Positions 17,735 through 24,805 of a stretch of DNA of 32,452 nucleotides are shown piece after piece; the first letter of the stretch is position 1; each line of letters opens with the position of its first letter. The notes below the pieces were generated by a model, which saw only the letters and a program-made list of their open reading frames with translations, had not been told where the DNA came from and did not search any database. The DNA is from a virus (taxonomy: Duplodnaviria > Heunggongvirae > Uroviricota > Caudoviricetes). The DNA is taken from IMG/VR virus record IMGVR_UViG_2568526722_000001. One strand, given 5' to 3'. Made by a program: the position numbers and the translations under genes.

Positions 17735-19564
17735 ATGAGCACTTCCGCATACAAGAGCAAAATTCGAACACTCCAGTGCGCGTTAAAAAACGGTGAATTT
17801 GAACCATTCATACAACATATCCGTTTTCCATACTTTAAAAATATAGAGCAGAATGCAAGGATCGATTTTCAGTTCCCTATAACGGCTTTAGTAGGAAAAA
17901 ATGGAACTAATAAAAGTTCTGTTATCAAAGCGCTATTTGGTTGCCCACATGGTAAAAATATAACTCGTTATTGGTTCACAACTGAAACAGATGAGTTTCC
18001 TGACCTAAAACTTGCTGATGGCAGTTCTCTTAAACCTAGATATATATATGGATATAAAAATGCTGATGGCCGTTTAGTTGAAATACTCCAAGCACGTATC
18101 AATGCTACCAAGAAAACAATCGATTATTGGGAAACAAGTCGACCATCTGTTGGTGATAACATGGAGAGTATTTCGGATGATCTGGGTGCTAATAGTAATG
18201 CAACCAGATGGAAAAAAATCAAGAAGGGATTGGTTTTCCTAGATTTCAGATCGGAAATAAGTGCATTTGATAGATGTATGTATCACTCTGATTTTAAATT
18301 AAGAAAGAAGAAGAGTGGTGTATTAATTACAAAGCAAGACTATATCAGAAGCAAATCTAAATATATAAAGAAAGCTTTTGATGAAAAGCTAAGTAATTTA
18401 AGACTCTGGGGGGCGGAAACCATTGTTAAAAATATAACCTTGGCGCCAGAACTAGTTGAGCACGTCTCATTTATATTAGGGAAAAAATATAAAGTCATTA
18501 AATTTCTTGAGCATCGGTTATTTGGAACCAGAGGAGGAACCGCTTTACTTTCAACTGATAAGTTGAACTATACAGAAGCGTTTGCTGGAAGTGGTGAATT
18601 TGCAATAGTTTCACTAATACTCAATATTTATTCGGCCAAACCTAATTCATTAATTCTTCTTGACGAACCAGAAGTTTCACTTCACCCTGGTGCACAAAAA
18701 AGGATGATGGATGTTCTGTACTCTATTGTTGAGCAGAAAAAACATCAAGTGGTAATATCAACCCATTCTCCTGTTATTGTGAACACTCTTCCCAAAGATG
18801 CCATTAAATTATTTGTTTTTGATGAAGAGAGTGAAACAGCTAAAATAGTTCAAAATATAGCACCGGATGAAGCTTTTATAGAGCTAGGGCATGATATTAA
18901 CAAGAAAACAATAATTGTAGAAGATAAATTAGCTAAAGCAATTATAGATAAAGCGATTAAAAATGATGAAAGATTAAGCTTATCATTTAGTGTAAGTTAT
19001 ATACCAGGTGGTTCGGAGACCATTTTAAGCAAGCATCTTCCCAGTTACGCTGTGGTAGAACGCAATGATATTTTGTTTTTACTTGATGGTGATAAAAACA
19101 AAAAAATAAAACCAGTAAGAATTAGTGAAATTGCTGATGCTGATTTAGTTAATACAATGTGCAAATATTATGGTTGCGAGTTAATTATCAATGCCAGTGG
19201 TAGTAATGGCAAAAAAAATGAACAAGAATCTAATAGACTCAAAAGGCAAGTGCTTGAGTATGCATTCAATAAAGTGCAGTATTTACCATTTGATACTCCC
19301 GAACAATTACTCATTGAAAAGGCAATTACGCCAAGTGAAAAAGAAATAATTGATTCACAGACCTGGAGTTCTAATGATCCAGAACTGTATAAGAATCAAA
19401 TAAGATTATTAGCGCAACACCTGTATGATAAAGAAGAAGTAAATGCAGAGGAAATTTTTTGCCTCCAACAAATGATGACCGCAAGACTTAAAAATGAATT
19501 GCCTGAATTTATAAAAATAAGAAAAATAATTACTCAGGCTCTTGACCGTGGTATCATTAGGTAG
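17735..19564 (+). CDS. ABC-type ATPase with a C-terminal TOPRIM-like domain (OLD-family / GajA-like putative nuclease)
   Basis: Walker A (LVGKNGTNKSS); a long insert; signature-like AFAGSGEF; Walker B (LILLDEPEVSLH); H-loop (VISTHSP). The C-terminal region has an invariant-Glu motif (TIIVEDKLAKAII) and a DxD motif (LFLLDGDKNKK) as in TOPRIM. 609 aa, in an AT-rich segment. Confidence 0.7.
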   Translation: MSTSAYKSKIRTLQCALKNGEFEPFIQHIRFPYFKNIEQNARIDFQFPITALVGKNGTNKSSVIKALFGCPHGKNITRYWFTTETDEFPDLKLADGSSLKPRYIYGYKNADGRLVEILQARINATKKTIDYWETSRPSVGDNMESISDDLGANSNATRWKKIKKGLVFLDFRSEISAFDRCMYHSDFKLRKKKSGVLITKQDYIRSKSKYIKKAFDEKLSNLRLWGAETIVKNITLAPELVEHVSFILGKKYKVIKFLEHRLFGTRGGTALLSTDKLNYTEAFAGSGEFAIVSLILNIYSAKPNSLILLDEPEVSLHPGAQKRMMDVLYSIVEQKKHQVVISTHSPVIVNTLPKDAIKLFVFDEESETAKIVQNIAPDEAFIELGHDINKKTIIVEDKLAKAIIDKAIKNDERLSLSFSVSYIPGGSETILSKHLPSYAVVERNDILFLLDGDKNKKIKPVRISEIADADLVNTMCKYYGCELIINASGSNGKKNEQESNRLKRQVLEYAFNKVQYLPFDTPEQLLIEKAITPSEKEIIDSQTWSSNDPELYKNQIRLLAQHLYDKEEVNAEEIFCLQQMMTARLKNELPEFIKIRKIITQALDRGIIR

Positions 19565-19587
19565 TGATTCTGGATGCAGAGGGAAAA

Positions 19588-20628
19588 ATGAAAAAAATCA
19601 AAGTGTTTGACTTCTTTTCCGGTTGTGGTGGAACCAGCCAAGGTTTCCATCAAGCTGGAATGGATATTGTTTTTGGCCTCGATTTCGACGTTGATGCAGC
19701 CAGTTCATTTCGTGCAAATTTCCCGCAGGCTGCTTTTATTAACTCGGACATTAGGTTAATCGACAACAATGCCATAAACAAGTTAGTAAAAAAACATCGT
19801 AATGATTACATTCTTTTTTCAGGATGTGCGCCTTGTCAACCGTACTCTAAGCAAAACTCAAATAAGAAAAATGATGATCCACGATTAGATCTATTAAAGG
19901 AATTCAGTCGCTTTGTAGAGCATTATATGCCTGATTTTATTTTTGTTGAAAACGTGCCAGGAATGCAAAAGTTTAACAAAAATGAAGGAACATTCATGAT
20001 GTTTTTAGAAATGCTTTCATCAAAGGGATATAGTGTAGATTATAAAGTAATGCCAGCTGCGTGGTACGGTGTACCACAGACGCGAGAAAGATTAGTGCTC
20101 ATTGCATCCAAGGATTTTTATGTCGCATTGCCTTCTCCTACACATGGGGTTGGAAATACTCCCTATTCAACAGTAAAGGACTGGATCGCTAATTTACCGA
20201 AGATAGAAGCAGGAGAAAAGCATAATAGTATTCCTGATCATGAAGCTGCACGCTTATCAGAGCTTAATTTACGTAGAATAAAATGCACTCCTGAAGGTGG
20301 AAGTCGAGAATTTTGGCCAGATGAATTGATTTTAGAATGCCATCGTAACCATAAAGGGCATACAGACGTATATGGACGTTTGAGTTGGGACAAACCAGCC
20401 AGCGGACTAACAACTCGTTGTATTAGCTATTCAAATGGACGTTTTGGACATCCAACACAAAATCGAGCAATATCGGTTCGTGAAGCAGCGTGTCTACAAA
20501 CATTTCCTTTGGATTATAAATTTATTGGTTCTTTGCAATCTCGGGCTCGTCAAATAGGAAATGCGGTCCCTCCGAAGATGTCTGAAACGATTGGAAAACA
20601 TTTGCTTAATATAATCAAAGCCTCCTAG
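19588..20628 (+). CDS. DNA (cytosine-5)-methyltransferase
   Basis: Canonical C5-methyltransferase motifs in order: I (FDFFSGCGG), IV (GCAPCQPYS), VI (ENVPGM), VIII (PQTRERLVLIA), IX (RAISVREAACLQTFPLDY), X (QIGNAVPP). Starts 23 nt after the ATPase stop; the track ORF begins earlier at a GTG at 19564. Confidence 0.9.
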   Translation: MKKIKVFDFFSGCGGTSQGFHQAGMDIVFGLDFDVDAASSFRANFPQAAFINSDIRLIDNNAINKLVKKHRNDYILFSGCAPCQPYSKQNSNKKNDDPRLDLLKEFSRFVEHYMPDFIFVENVPGMQKFNKNEGTFMMFLEMLSSKGYSVDYKVMPAAWYGVPQTRERLVLIASKDFYVALPSPTHGVGNTPYSTVKDWIANLPKIEAGEKHNSIPDHEAARLSELNLRRIKCTPEGGSREFWPDELILECHRNHKGHTDVYGRLSWDKPASGLTTRCISYSNGRFGHPTQNRAISVREAACLQTFPLDYKFIGSLQSRARQIGNAVPPKMSETIGKHLLNIIKAS

Positions 20629-21108: not shown

Positions 21109-21870
21109 TCACTTTTCCGACACAATACGACTGGAGGAATCGAAAATCTGTCGAACAATATCCCGGTGCTTGTTCAGCTCCCGCAGCGCGGCGCAGACTC
21201 GCTCCCACTTCTGGACATGATTTTTCGCCCGACGCAGTTCACGGTTTGCCATATGCAGCGATGGTAAAATCAGGTTATCCGCTTGCGTTTCAGTAAACGA
21301 TGGCAACGACTGCACAATGTCCGCCACAGTTTCTGTTTTAATATCTTCCTGTGTTGCAGCTTCCTGTACTGGTAACGCAACACCGGCTAGCTGAGGAAAG
21401 GCTTTACCATCTGTTTCCGCTACCGATGCAGCTTTCGGCTCTGCTGGTAAATTACCGCCCGGCATGCAGTAACGAAATTTACCGTTCTGATTAACGCGAA
21501 TCAGACGAGCTTTGCTGATTGCCATTGCCAGCGTTGAAGCCACTTTGCGGGATGTGGTACCGAACAACGTAGCCAGTTCATCCGCAGTTAGTGGACCACG
21601 TTGTTCAATCGTCGCAGTTAAATCGCTCTCTGAAATTTTCGCGACTGTTGCCGTGGTAGTTTCTTCCGGCAGTTCTGCCGGCGCTGGCTGTTCCTGCTGA
21701 ACGTTGTTATCAGCCACACGCCAGGTGTACGCGCTTTTATCAACGAAACCAGCCTTTTTCAGTTCCCATAGTTCGTTCAGCACTTCTTCACGGCTGATAT
21801 CAAGTCGCGCAGCAAGTTCTATGGATGTGGCTTTTCCCATTGCTTTCAGTGCGTCAAAAACAGTCTCCAT
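21109..21870 (-). CDS. Prophage protein with an N-terminal winged-helix-like domain (probable intact form of K-12 Rac ydaW)
   Basis: [43 protein letters not shown]... looks like a wHTH. It lies immediately downstream of the DnaC-like gene, as ydaW does in Rac. An alternative start at 21921 exists. Confidence 0.5.
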
Positions 21871-21892
21871 TAAATTTTTCTCCCGGTAAAAA

Positions 21893-22639
21893 TTACTTCG
21901 CAATTCCTGGCTGGACGACATTCGGACGCCAGCTCTCCCAGTTAAAATTCACCCATCGCCCGCCGTTCATGGTCATGCGATCCATAATCCTCTCGCCGAG
22001 CAATGTTTTCATGGCCTCATAATTCAGGTTTGTCAGCATCCCCACGCTGCGCATCGACGCTGTCCGGCGATCAACAATCTGGTGCAGCACCACCTGCTCG
22101 TTTTTTGTCTCGCGCTGAATGCCAATTTCATCAAGAACCAGCAGATCCACTTGGCACAGTTCCCGCAAAAATTTTTCGCCTGATTGCCCGTCGTCATAGC
22201 TGGCGTGTAGAGCACTCATGACATCAGCCACGGTAACCACAATCACTGTCTGGCCATCTTTCAGCAGGCGATTCCCGATAGCCGCCGCCAGATGGTTTTT
22301 TCCGGTACCAGGTTTTCCGCTGAACGCAAAATTTGTACACCCGGTCATCAGTTCATCAGCGATGGATTTCGCCTGACTCAACGCGTATCGCTGCCCTTCG
22401 TTCTGCACCTGGTAATTCGAAAACGAGCATTTGCGGTGCAATGGCTGGATGCCAGAGCGATTAAGAATTTTTTCCACCCGCAACTGACGATTCTGACGGT
22501 TGATCTCCTCACAACGTTTCTGGCCTTCGGAAAGTTGCCACTCGCGCCACTCCGCTACCGTCTTGAATGGCGCGGTTACATGTGACGGGGCCAGTCTGCG
22601 GATACGTTCAAGAACATCGCCTGTCGCAATATTTTTCAT
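21893..22639 (-). CDS. ydaV: DnaC-like replicative helicase loader (IstB-like ATPase)
   Basis: Walker A ([17 protein letters not shown]) and Walker B ([10 protein letters not shown]). At 248 aa it matches the length of Rac YdaV. Confidence 0.85.
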
Positions 22640-22645
22640 GGTCAG

Positions 22646-23434
22646 TTACCCCCTGAAGCCTGGCGGGATCGCACTATCCGGTAACGAGACGGTGTTAACC
22701 TGTCGGAGTAACGTCTCAGGTCGAACACCTTTCGGCGCGAACAAGCCCTGGTATTCATTGGCGATGCTGTGTCGAATCACCTGCTCAGGTGAAAAACCCT
22801 GCTGGCGGAATTTTTCCAGCTCCCGTATCGCCCCGTTAGCGCCCTGCTCCGTTCGAATCGGTTTTCGCAATGCCTGCCTGAACTGAACCCACTCATGCCA
22901 GAGTGTTTCCGGCAACCAGTCAGGCAGCTCGATAGCCTCCGGTTCGAATTTTTTAGACGCTCGTTTTTGGCGAGGGGGATTTAGGGGGAGATAAGTATTT
23001 ATATCTTCCTCTTTCTCTTCCTCTGGTAACGCTTTTTGATCCGTTTTTGTAACGCTGGCAGCGTTACCTTTTCGTTTCAGTTCTCGTATTTTTGTTACTC
23101 TCTCGTTTGTAACCGCCCGTTTTTTAGAGCTTTTCCCGTTATGGCGCTCAAAGTTAGGAAGCGACAACACACCATTAGTTTCGACCAGCCATCCAACCTG
23201 AATTAACGCATCAGCAAAACCAGCCATAAAAGTGATGCGATCTATTGCACTTTTTGTAACGCCGCGAGCGTTACACTCTGCGTTACCGTCTATCATTTGT
23301 TGATCCGCCCATGCCCAGAAGCGAATGACTTTCCCTAATGCGGCATCTGGATCAATATTCAGAATCTCAGCAAGCCTGAATATTTCCGGCTTATCCGGCG
23401 TAATAACTTCGAGCTTTATCCAGTTTGAAGCCAT
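22646..23434 (-). CDS. ydaU: Replication initiation/primosomal protein (DUF1376, DnaT-like; YdaU-like)
   Basis: Positioned immediately upstream of the DnaC-like gene. The N-terminal domain has a conserved-looking RFWAWADQQ block. Contains two of the three GTAACGC-N5-GCGTTAC palindromes. Confidence 0.6.
   Translation of the reverse strand: MASNWIKLEVITPDKPEIFRLAEILNIDPDAALGKVIRFWAWADQQMIDGNAECNARGVTKSAIDRITFMAGFADALIQVGWLVETNGVLSLPNFERHNGKSSKKRAVTNERVTKIRELKRKGNAASVTKTDQKALPEEEKEEDINTYLPLNPPRQKRASKKFEPEAIELPDWLPETLWHEWVQFRQALRKPIRTEQGANGAIRELEKFRQQGFSPEQVIRHSIANEYQGLFAPKGVRPETLLRQVNTVSLPDSAIPPGFRG
23049..23067. repeat. 19-bp palindrome GTAACGC-N5-GCGTTAC, copy 1 (inside the ydaU-like gene)
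   Basis: gtaacgc tggca gcgttac, with perfect 7-bp arms. An additional gtaacgc half-site lies about 20 bp upstream. Confidence 0.6.
23256..23274. repeat. 19-bp palindrome GTAACGC-N5-GCGTTAC, copy 2 (inside the ydaU-like gene)
   Basis: gtaacgc cgcga gcgttac, followed 5 bp later by another gcgttac half-site. Confidence 0.6.
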
Positions 23435-23447
23435 TTGTTTTCACCTT

Positions 23448-23466
23448 GTAACGCTCGCAGCGTTAC
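23448..23466. repeat. 19-bp palindrome GTAACGC-N5-GCGTTAC, copy 3 (intergenic, just upstream of the ydaU-like start)
   Basis: gtaacgc tcgca gcgttac, located between the ydaT stop and the ydaU-like ribosome-binding site. Confidence 0.6.
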
Positions 23467-23511
23467 ATTTAACTGATACCGAACAAAACAGTTCGGTACG
23501 ATTAATTTCAA

Positions 23512-23934
23512 TCAATGCACTACGACAGAATCGCTAGGAGAACCGCCGCCGCTGAAATGTGCTTTACGGTAAACGGCCTGGACTGCATCATCATGCGCAT
23601 CAATTGCCGTACTCAGTGCATCCTGTGCCGCCAGTAATGCACGGCGTTCCAGGGTATCGAAGATGCAGAGTCGGTGACGCAGCTCGCGAGGAAGAATTGC
23701 CAGAACCGCAGGGATCAGTTTCTGAATTTTTTCCCTTTGCGCATTCGTTTCACCTTTCAACCAACGATGATAGATATTCTGCTGATTGTTCCAGTCCTTG
23801 CCTGGTACCAGGGGCAATTCGCCGCCCCCCTGGCGCAGATATTCTTCAGTAATTGCGTTAGCGACCCACGCCTGCCCTTTTTCGGCTGCCAGGGCTAACA
23901 ACACTGATTCGATGTGCTCATGCTTGATTTTCAT
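23512..23934 (-). CDS. ydaT: YdaT (CII-like regulator of Rac)
   Basis: 140 aa (MKIKHEHIESVLLALAAEKGQAWV...), the same length as K-12 YdaT. Its start overlaps the ydaS stop (ATGA), as in the ydaS-ydaT operon. Confidence 0.75.
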   Translation of the reverse strand: MKIKHEHIESVLLALAAEKGQAWVANAITEEYLRQGGGELPLVPGKDWNNQQNIYHRWLKGETNAQREKIQKLIPAVLAILPRELRHRLCIFDTLERRALLAAQDALSTAIDAHDDAVQAVYRKAHFSGGGSPSDSVVVH

Positions 23935-24185
23935 GAATCAACTCCCATCAGCTTTTTCGTAGTAGTTTTATTTCTGCCAATAGTTAAAATTGCATCGGCA
24001 GAAAATAATCCGTTTGATGCATGAGCGATTTTTTCAGCGTAATTTGTTTCGCCGGTATATTCTGTGCGAGGCAATTTTCCGTTATCCATCCATTTGTAGA
24101 TTGCTCTTTGGCTGACACCACAAACGTCGGCCACAACAGAAACGCGAACAGTTTTGATTACATCTTCAAGTGTTTTCTGGTTCAT
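23931..24185 (-). CDS. ydaS: Cro-like HTH regulator (YdaS-like)
   Basis: HTH segment VADVCGVSQRAIYKWMDNGKLP. It is divergent from the repressor gene and first in the early-right operon. The start is uncertain: the ATG for MNQKTLED... is used; the track ORF extends to 24257. Confidence 0.6.
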   Translation of the reverse strand: MNQKTLEDVIKTVRVSVVADVCGVSQRAIYKWMDNGKLPRTEYTGETNYAEKIAHASNGLFSADAILTIGRNKTTTKKLMGVDS

Positions 24186-24264
24186 ATCATCCTCACAATG
24201 TGAACTTTGAGTACATGCTATAACAGAACTGACAGTACATTCAAGAGCGAATATCATTGAACTT
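24186..24264. promoter_or_regulatory. Divergent promoter/operator region between ydaS and racR (OR-like)
   Basis: An 80-bp interval between divergent regulator genes. It contains two direct AGTACAT motifs about 24 bp apart (near 24211 and 24235) and a short TTCAA...TTGAA inverted repeat. Confidence 0.4.
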
Positions 24265-24684
24265 ATGGTTCATGAAGATAAAGCGCGTAAAGAGTTCGCC
24301 AGTAGGCTTGCGCTAGCCTGTGAAAACGCTGGTTATGAACAACATGGAAGGCAGGCAGAAATTGCCCGTCGAATGAAATTAACACCAAAAGCGGTTAGCA
24401 AATGGTTTAATGGTGAAACAATTCCTCGCCGAGAGAAATTAAGGGAATTAGCAACACTCATTGGAACAACACCAACCTATCTTTTGGGAGAGGATACAGA
24501 AGAAAGTGGACAGATACGTTTCTATCAGGAGTTAAATCCAAGACAAAAAATCATCATTGACCTTCTGGACGAGCTCCCTGACAGTGAGACAGATGAACTT
24601 TTAAAAACTCTTGAGGAGAAAAAACAGAAGTACAATGCAATTTACGAAGAGTTAGCACGAAAGAAAAAACAAAAAGCCTCTTAA
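24265..24684 (+). CDS. racR: Prophage repressor (XRE-family HTH; RacR-like)
   Basis: HTH segment QAEIARRMKLTPKAVSKWFNGETIP. It is divergent from ydaS-ydaT, the position of RacR/cI. The length (139 aa) differs from my recollection of K-12 RacR (158 aa), so the symbol is tentative. Confidence 0.6.
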   Translation: MVHEDKARKEFASRLALACENAGYEQHGRQAEIARRMKLTPKAVSKWFNGETIPRREKLRELATLIGTTPTYLLGEDTEESGQIRFYQELNPRQKIIIDLLDELPDSETDELLKTLEEKKQKYNAIYEELARKKKQKAS

Positions 24685-24739
24685 ACCAGCATAAATCCGG
24701 TAGCGTCCCCCTCCGGGTTTGTGCTTCACTTTATCCCGT

Positions 24740-24805
24740 CTCATTTTTTTATACATAAAATGTACCTAAAGTACTTTACAATGATGAACACAAAGTACAT
24801 TATAT
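24740..24805. promoter_or_regulatory. Candidate OL-like operator/promoter cluster downstream of racR
   Basis: Recurrence of the same motif family as in the OR-like region: ATGTACC, AAGTACTTT and AAGTACATT within about 50 bp, in AT-rich DNA. It lies upstream of the plus-strand early-left genes. Confidence 0.35.

Follow-up and report, generated by a model that had tools for sequence, protein, structure and literature searches.

Gene order and repeats at the initiator locus

We analysed a 32,452-bp stretch of DNA, referred to below as the window, which includes a Rac-type prophage region located beside ttcA, with intR, xisR, recET, kilR and sieB. Of 5,426 complete E. coli genomes, 449 contain 80% or more of a 2.5-kb query across the replication locus. 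The prophage found here may be defective, and the origin proposed below may therefore not currently fire. The genes and sequence elements of the locus are the following:

24265-24684, plus strand: racR-like gene, near the initiator locus
ydaS-like gene, minus strand, in the gene order racR-like, ydaS-like, ydaT, 262-aa ORF, ydaV
23512-23934, minus strand: ydaT, ORF upstream of the initiator gene
23448-23466, no strand: site C, perfect palindrome GTAACGC-TCGCA-GCGTTAC, intergenic
22646-23434, minus strand: replication initiator gene, 262 aa, PHROG 2509
23280-23286, minus strand: direct half-site GTAACGC, gene nt 149-155, 12 bp upstream of site A
23256-23274, no strand: site A, perfect palindrome within the initiator gene, gene nt 161-179
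23049-23067, no strand: site B, central palindrome, gene nt 368-386
23026-23032, plus strand: inverted half-site at gene nt 403-409 (GCGTTAC on the gene strand), distal in the site B array
23004-23024, minus strand: polypurine tract, 21 purines on the gene strand (AGAGGAAGAGAAAGAGGAAGA), then AT-rich GATATAAATA
21893-22639, minus strand: ydaV, Pfam IstB_IS21 and Bac_DnaA ATPase; PHROG 50 'DnaC-like helicase loader', E 4e-85

The initiator gene starts with an ATG at 23432-34, preceded by a Shine-Dalgarno sequence (AAGGTG) at 23441-46, and ydaV starts 7 nt downstream of it. Site C lies between the ydaT stop (23512) and this Shine-Dalgarno sequence, with its end 13 nt before the ATG; these coordinates agree with the initial annotation, which had placed two palindromes within the initiator gene and the third between the ydaT stop and the ribosome-binding site. 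That annotation had also called for a motif search and had considered three perfect palindromes improbable by chance. An exact pattern search of the window for GTAACGCNNNNNGCGTTAC returned three copies (23049-23067, 23256-23274 and 23448-23466), all in or just upstream of the initiator gene, and their improbability was confirmed: GTAACGC-N5-GCGTTAC had no copy in 100 dinucleotide-preserving shuffles of the window and an analytic expectation of about 1e-4 per window. There are 12 copies of the 7-mer half-site in the window (2.8 expected), eight of them in 23026-23466, including two lone half-sites at 23026-32 and 23280-86, close to the positions (about 23027 and 23280) where extra half-sites had been noted. 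The three copies were also recovered by an independent repeat finder, which assigned them to a 25-nt family, TTGTAACGC-N5-GCGTTAC, whose successive members are 207 and 192 bp apart.

Both intragenic palindromes are also read as protein. Site A is translated as C-N-A-R-G-V-T, in an N-terminal-domain loop of low prediction confidence, and the direct half-site next to it arose via a four-codon insertion (E-C-N-A); the insertion with its duplicated half-site is common to the closest enterobacterial clusters of the family (L085, L087 and L089). Site B, where the N-terminal domain ends, is translated as G-N-A-A-S-V-T, and the distal half-site, which encodes A-L-P, directly adjoins the polypurine tract. 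Compared with the layout of the family described below, site B of the window is a trimmed array (> <. <).

Domain architecture of the initiator

All of the initiator (residues 1-262) aligns with positions 1-277 of the profile of PHROG 2509 (E 4.7e-88), 'replication initiation protein', a function name that stems from annotation and not from experiment; the RefSeq name of the E. coli protein is 'hypothetical protein'. An N-terminal domain (approx. residues 1-120) is followed by a charged linker and a C-terminal domain (approx. residues 139-262), the latter common to K-12 YdaU and lambda-O-type initiators, and the C-terminal half also matches 'O-like' and 'primosomal' PHROGs. The product of ydaV is the presumed partner of this C-terminal domain.

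Scans against Pfam (E <= 0.01) and NCBIfam returned no match for the N-terminal domain and only a faint DnaT match in the tail. Membership of the Phage_rep_O family (PF04492) was rejected, as the N-terminal domain has no match to this profile and Gifsy-2 O itself matches it with E 1.5e-30. The YdaU/DUF1376 family (PF07120) was rejected likewise, for want of a Pfam match; the K-12-type protein of phage 683R6 matches DUF1376 with E 9e-26. Profile alignment with hhalign detected no relation of the N-terminal alignment to the N-terminus of DUF1376 (probability 0.1%) or of Gifsy-2 O (Phage_rep_O; probability 0.2%), and an HMM search of PDB sequences with the domain gave no match. The structure predicted for the N-terminal domain suggests a winged-helix-like fold, and most of its structural matches are to transcription factors (Crp/Fnr, MarR and GntR types). 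Residues 51-56, the loop encoded by site A, have a pLDDT below 50 and form the sole low-confidence internal loop of the predicted domain. A word-indexed protein search, which seeded the first structure prediction, returned mostly truncated close relatives.

Proteins of other phages match the initiator over residues 1-145 only and then carry a DnaT-type C-terminus. From these alignments, the initiator is a mosaic protein in which a distinct N-terminal domain is joined to a C-terminus of the YdaU/lambda-O type. The designation 'ydaU-like' chosen in the initial annotation is thus apt for the C-terminal half of the protein and does not extend to the N-terminal domain, which lacks the DUF1376 of K-12-type YdaU. 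The N-terminal domain family is large, with 6,390 representatives at 50% identity with E <= 1e-3 (3,943 with E <= 1e-10), and is found in temperate phages and prophages of Escherichia, Salmonella, Enterobacter, Pseudomonas, Xanthomonas/Xylella, Ralstonia and Vibrio.

Sites and polypurine tract across the phage family

Among twelve annotated phage loci, both intragenic palindromes are found at the same gene positions in all homologues of the N-terminal domain with 37-65% amino acid identity, i.e. in Enterobacter BUCT554, E. coli TL-2011b and HEMP4, CBW1004C, Pseudomonas PAN70 and VW-6S, Xanthomonas CP2 and Ralstonia YL1, and they are absent from those of the twelve loci whose similarity to the window initiator is restricted to the C-terminal domain. 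A wider sample of approx. 330 IMG/VR loci contained 150 distinct N-terminal protein sequences, which at 85% identity group into 62 clusters and come from phages of Escherichia, Pseudomonas, Xanthomonas, Ralstonia, Vibrio and Salmonella; as the 62 clusters share phylogeny, counts made on them overstate the number of independent events. In most of these clusters a clade-specific palindrome lies near codon 50 (site A; gene nt ~149-167), followed near codons 115-135 by an array of 1-4 direct and 2 inverted half-sites (site B; >> <<) with half-site spacings of 12, 12 and 11 bp, and, immediately 3' of this array, by a polypurine tract, usually CC[TA]GAGAAGAGAAGAGAAGAGAAGA. The half-site core of each class is enriched 11.8-fold in gene positions -60 to +450 relative to the flanks, and in nearly every cluster it is the top non-purine 6-mer of that region. 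Site C is confined to an enterobacterial sub-clade: a similar upstream palindrome (gene -44 to -17) is present in 5/5 of the closest enterobacterial representatives (L013, L085, L087, L089 and L091; 61-100% amino acid identity to the window initiator), and a sixth enterobacterial cluster, L227, has its palindrome further upstream, at -98. Spacings between sites, 207 and 192 bp in the window, range from 182 to 264 bp in relatives without constant helical phase, and a looping model with fixed phase was dropped for this reason.

The arms of the palindromes fall into classes that track the initiator clades of the 62 clusters. GTAAC(GC) is the arm of the majority of clusters, the window included; GTCAC(GC) is that of a group containing Vibrio, GTCCGC that of the Salmonella SPN1S/epsilon15-like group, GTAGAC that of two clusters, and GGAACG and GTTGCG that of one cluster each. 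The overall geometry of 19-20 bp is constant across these classes. Sites A and B have the identical arm in 54 of the 59 clusters with a perfect-armed palindrome in both zones. Such co-variation is the pattern expected if one protein, diverging together with its sites, reads all of them. A mutual-information search for specificity residues was uninformative, its top column being residue 51, which is itself encoded by the site, and the remainder being confounded by phylogeny.

Codon usage bears on the level at which the palindromes are maintained. Site A could be scored in 40 of the 42 clusters of the GTAAC class; there, Gly is encoded by GGT in 34/34 cases, Asn by AAC in 40/40 and Val by GTT in 40/40, compared to 19%, 66% and 29%, respectively, in the same genes overall. 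Palindromes of this class in the site B zone occur 35 times in one reading frame and 4 times in another; in BUCT554 and TL-2011b, site B is translated as V-T-R-T-A-L, as against G-N-A-A-S-V-T in the window. At site C, the arms are invariant among 60 distinct close relatives, and eight spacer variants are found. Since the arms match within a genome, synonymous positions are fixed, one site is used in two frames and spacers are free to vary, these comparisons indicate that selection on the palindromes acts at the level of DNA and not of peptide. In the same sense, the Asn-to-His replacement between the GTAAC and GTCAC classes is a change of site read as protein.

The opposite reading, that the palindromes are a by-product of a repeated peptide motif N-A-x-x-V-T and have no function as DNA, draws on the translation of both window sites A and B as G/C-N-A-x-x-V-T. 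It is contradicted by the codon and frame evidence just given, and the chance that it is correct is negligible: the invariant third positions depart from the codon-usage background, site B changes frame in two phages, site C is non-coding, and the residues in question are located in a predicted loop of low confidence. It is also very unlikely that the palindromes serve as RNA hairpins in the operon mRNA, acting in processing, stability or translational control, with arm changes as compensatory mutations of the stem. A stem of 7 bp closed by a 5-nt loop could form at each palindrome, any change in one arm has its mirror image in the other, and a simple scan marks 23049-67 as terminator-like on the antisense strand. 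Hairpins do not, however, need identical arms at all sites of a genome, nor do they account for unpaired direct half-sites at a fixed 12-bp spacing, and the arm sequence itself, beyond mere pairing, is conserved across proteins of 37-100% identity.

The polypurine tract is a near-constant companion of the site B array. An uninterrupted purine run of at least 14 nt is present at this position in 55/62 clusters (median 23.5 nt, usually (GAGAA)n), compared to a median of 11 nt for the longest purine run elsewhere in the loci, and the tract begins 0-2 nt past the last inverted half-site core in 50/62 clusters. Arginine codons within it are AGA in 126 of 127 cases, against 8% elsewhere in the same genes, and this holds in GC-rich hosts too. 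The 40-mer at 22990-23029 is the least stable duplex inside the initiator gene, and within 21800-24800 it ranks third. The AT content of the tract is only moderate, and the least stable stretches of the window are located elsewhere. Being the least stable DNA in the gene and adjoining the array, the tract is a probable site of unwinding, i.e. a candidate DNA-unwinding element.

Site B and the tract correspond to residues ~123-144, the boundary from which homology to other C-terminal modules extends. Between family members, similarity of the proteins stops at the tract, and similarity to K-12-type YdaU starts there. YdaU of the K-12 Rac prophage, compared here via the protein of phage 683R6, occupies the same slot between ydaT and ydaV in the same prophage and has a C-terminal domain 80% identical from window residue 139 onwards; only residues 139-262 are shared. 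Its N-terminal domain is DUF1376, with no detectable similarity to that of the window initiator, and the K-12-type gene has neither GTAACGC palindromes nor a purine run of 12 nt or more; in the corresponding position it has a repeated motif of its own, TGTTCAAACA. From these differences, N-terminal domain and sites have been exchanged as one module. Because similarity breaks at the tract and K-12-type YdaU lacks all of these features, the tract travels with the same module. In this slot of Rac-type prophages, E. coli strains thus carry non-homologous initiator/origin modules of at least two kinds, which bears on the replication of excised Rac and on incompatibility between related prophages. 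An active Rac origin, oriJ, is cited in one report (PMC3945230), and the oriJ papers examined cite oriJ without giving its sequence.

A candidate replication origin within the initiator gene

The ORFs upstream of the initiator gene in the 62 clusters belong to 43 unrelated families, and as no neighbouring gene is conserved, the initiator itself is the likely binder. In the reverse direction, 99 of the first 120 IMG/VR stretches listed with the exact palindrome encode the N-terminal domain, and in 97 of these 99 all palindromes lie within -150 to +480 of the start of the gene, in three positional clusters; the sites are linked exclusively to this domain. The initial annotation had suggested YdaT or RacR as binding proteins, and the three helix-turn-helix proteins YdaT (CII-like), YdaS (Cro-like) and RacR are indeed encoded directly upstream. 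Binding by any of them is nevertheless highly improbable: homologues of YdaT, YdaS and RacR are found in just 3, 2 and 3 of the 62 site-bearing clusters, respectively, the upstream genes are as diverse as stated above, and the arm class tracks the initiator clade. YdaT of CP-933P, moreover, is reported to recognise another inverted repeat, TTGATT-N6-AATCAA, which also counts against a regulator.

Lambda ori is located inside the O gene, between the N-terminal DNA-binding and the C-terminal loader-recruiting domains of the protein, and the relatives of lambda in this respect include 82, 21, phi80, P22 and Gifsy-type phages. The window resembles this arrangement in several ways. Multiple recognition sequences lie in the coding region of the initiator (three palindromes and two half-sites, at positions kept across the family); the sites are ~19 bp long, dyad-symmetric and suited to dimers, and are found at the domain boundary beside a strand-asymmetric tract of low stability; and the next gene, ydaV, encodes a helicase loader. 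A DnaC-like gene was also found downstream of the initiator, within the 1-kb flank examined, in at least 13 of the 62 clusters. The C-terminal part is homologous to Gifsy-2 O, with 35% identity over window residues 89-262 only; unlike lambda O, the window initiator has an N-terminal domain without detectable sequence relation to Phage_rep_O. As a positive control, the same palindrome scan was applied to the lambda-O-type gene of Gifsy-2, where it recovered the classical clustered iterons. These iterons are 4-5 in number, in tandem within ~100-120 bp. The family of the window, in contrast, has 2-3 dispersed clusters over ~420 bp, which was counted against an origin, as were the inconstant helical phase of the spacings, the moderate AT content of the tract and the less stable stretches elsewhere in the window, and its main cluster is a converging half-site array (>> <<) adjoining a (GAGAA)n polypurine run, a layout not seen in lambda ori.

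From this comparative evidence, the palindromes are probably the cognate sites of the N-terminal domain of the initiator and form, together with the tract, a replication origin in the 5' half of the gene. In its core, this agrees with the proposal of the initial annotation that they are origin iterons, or operator sites for a dimeric protein, within a lambdoid-type initiator gene; between the two functions that it had left side by side, we infer that of an origin. By analogy with lambda O and ori, binding, dimer stoichiometry, unwinding, recruitment of helicase and any autoregulation may be envisaged as follows. A dimer of the initiator would sit on each 19-bp palindrome, with one GTAACGC half-site per protomer and half-site starts 12 bp apart. 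At site B (23026-23067), several protomers would assemble head-to-head over the converging half-sites, and sites A (23256-86) and C (23448-66), approx. 200 and 400 bp away, would hold extra dimers, possibly with looping or wrapping of the DNA. Strain from this complex would open the low-stability polypurine/AT tract at 22990-23024, and the C-terminal domain of the initiator would recruit the DnaC-like loader YdaV and the host DnaB helicase. Site C may also act as a roadblock, at which the initiator would halt read-through transcription of its own gene. No binding, unwinding or replication assay for any member of the family was found in the literature searched.

The same protein could instead use the palindromes only as operators, to autoregulate the initiator and loader genes or to control their dosage, with the true origin elsewhere. 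The location of site C beside the ribosome-binding site would suit such a role, palindromes ~200 bp apart look more like looping operators than like tight iterons, and the winged-helix matches are mostly to transcription factors. A promoter scan, however, found no sigma-70-like promoter on the gene strand near any site, which disfavours a classical operator role. Site C, moreover, is found in the enterobacterial sub-clade only, whereas A, B and the tract are family-wide, and a converging array next to a conserved low-stability tract at a domain boundary has no obvious part in repression. Considering also that the PHROGs of the protein carry an annotation as replication initiators and that the helicase-loader gene comes next, we regard a purely regulatory function as unlikely.

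Iteron-type plasmid initiators with winged-helix domains (RepA/Rep_3 and RepA_N) bind direct repeats as monomers and use inverted repeats for autorepression; they have no detectable sequence homology to the window initiator. The core origin of SV40/polyomavirus has four GAGGC pentanucleotides in two inverted pairs, flanked by an AT tract (PMC1779811). The window family likewise has short head-to-head half-sites in pairs beside an easily melted, asymmetric tract, and by this analogy the geometry suits two opposed protein arrays; the likeness is one of layout only, as the SV40 initiator is itself a helicase and is unrelated in sequence. The 'Eru' paper on Stx-phage replication concerns TL-2011c, whose replication module is different from that of TL-2011b, and makes no mention of origins.

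The principle that an origin lies within the initiator gene and is bound by the N-terminal domain of the initiator is the already known lambda paradigm. What appears to be undescribed is the N-terminal family itself, the dispersed palindromes with their converging array, the invariant polypurine element and the natural specificity classes: the literature searched contained no description of the half-site motif, the tract, a ydaU origin or an epsilon15 origin, and earlier work in subscription journals is possible. The arrangement amounts to a testable origin map for the whole family, with predicted initiator sites, the bases read and the place of DNA opening, and it provides at least four well-supported natural specificity variants, plus two from single clusters, that can be used for swaps. 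The case also illustrates cleanly how a protein-binding site constrains the coding sequence of its own putative binding protein.

It is tempting to go further and to speculate that the converging half-site array and the (GAGAA)n tract represent a distinct origin-opening module, with the tract also serving as a recombination joint for cassette swaps, but we hold this extension to be rather doubtful. Initiator arrays would then flank the tract and extrude or capture its homopurine strand, either via a C-terminal domain that binds single-stranded DNA (DnaT-like in many members) or via a triplex-prone structure, and cassettes consisting of a DNA-binding domain plus its cognate sites would be exchanged between phages at the tract. 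Since the sites lie in the coding sequence of the putative binding domain itself, a change of specificity would be recorded as an amino acid change. If this is true, a recognition code could be read from the family, comprising four or more well-supported classes.

Probable exchange of modules at the polypurine tract

Similarity of the initiator encoded in the window to the K-12-type YdaU, which has a DUF1376 N-terminal domain and occupies the same gene slot, starts where the polypurine tract ends (23020, residue ~139), and past this tract the members of the initiator family diverge completely from one another. Because of these two patterns, the tract looks like a joint at which the N-terminal domain, together with its sites, is exchanged against different C-terminal modules, such as YdaU/O-like and DnaT-like modules, among others.

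Repeats within other initiator genes

Variants of site A, the palindrome at 23256-23274 inside the initiator gene, were noted in other family members (positions counted from the gene start). In the GTCCGC class, represented by Salmonella phage SPN1S (L011), the upstream palindrome lies at nt 66-84, as against about 149 otherwise, and extra flanking half-sites occur at nt 55, 101 and 369 (regions 55-107 and 334-375). This class has retained the two-cluster layout, with the position of site A shifted within the domain. Many loci of the GTAAC class (e.g. L010, L095, L097 and L098) carry added inverted half-sites, GCGTTAC, at nt ~177 and ~199, i.e. 11 and 33 nt past site A, within codons for the peptides A-L-L-D and G-V-T-G. 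Their recurrence makes site A, too, a small array in Pseudomonas-, Ralstonia- and Xanthomonas-type members; the initiator gene of the window has no additional GCGTTAC half-sites at these two distances.

The K-12-type YdaU gene of phage vB_EcoS-683R6 (L004, locus 1018-1875) features a repeated motif of its own, (A/G)TGTTCAAACA:

Gene nt 392-402, 425-436 and 448-459: three copies in the linker-coding region, two of them direct and one inverted
Gene nt 149: further occurrence of TGTTCAA

The relative positions of these repeats match those of site B (23049-23067) for the linker copies and of site A for the occurrence at nt 149, making them candidates for the iterons of the Rac origin of K-12 type, perhaps oriJ.

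Further features of the window

23093-23113, gene strand: GTTAC-N10-GTAAC, two 5-nt cores in everted arrangement, at gene nt 322 and 337, lying between site A and site B
23477-23498: inverted repeat TACCGAAC-N6-GTTCGGTA with a perfect 8-bp stem, in the interval that separates the ydaT stop codon from site C (23448-23466)
17735-20628, + strand: two overlapping ORFs of 609 and 354 aa, downstream of the DUF977/DUF1627 genes

Clusters L085 and L087 have one of the two everted cores as well; the pair may represent an additional weak site or have arisen by chance. The absence of a T-run on the gene strand means that the inverted repeat is not a canonical terminator. Judged by eye from sequence, the 609-aa ORF looks ATPase-like and the 354-aa ORF looks like a C-5 cytosine methyltransferase. 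In Rac-type prophages, their location appears to serve as a variable slot for defence genes; in strain AR_0369, the matching slot is occupied by the anti-phage genes iteA and iteS.
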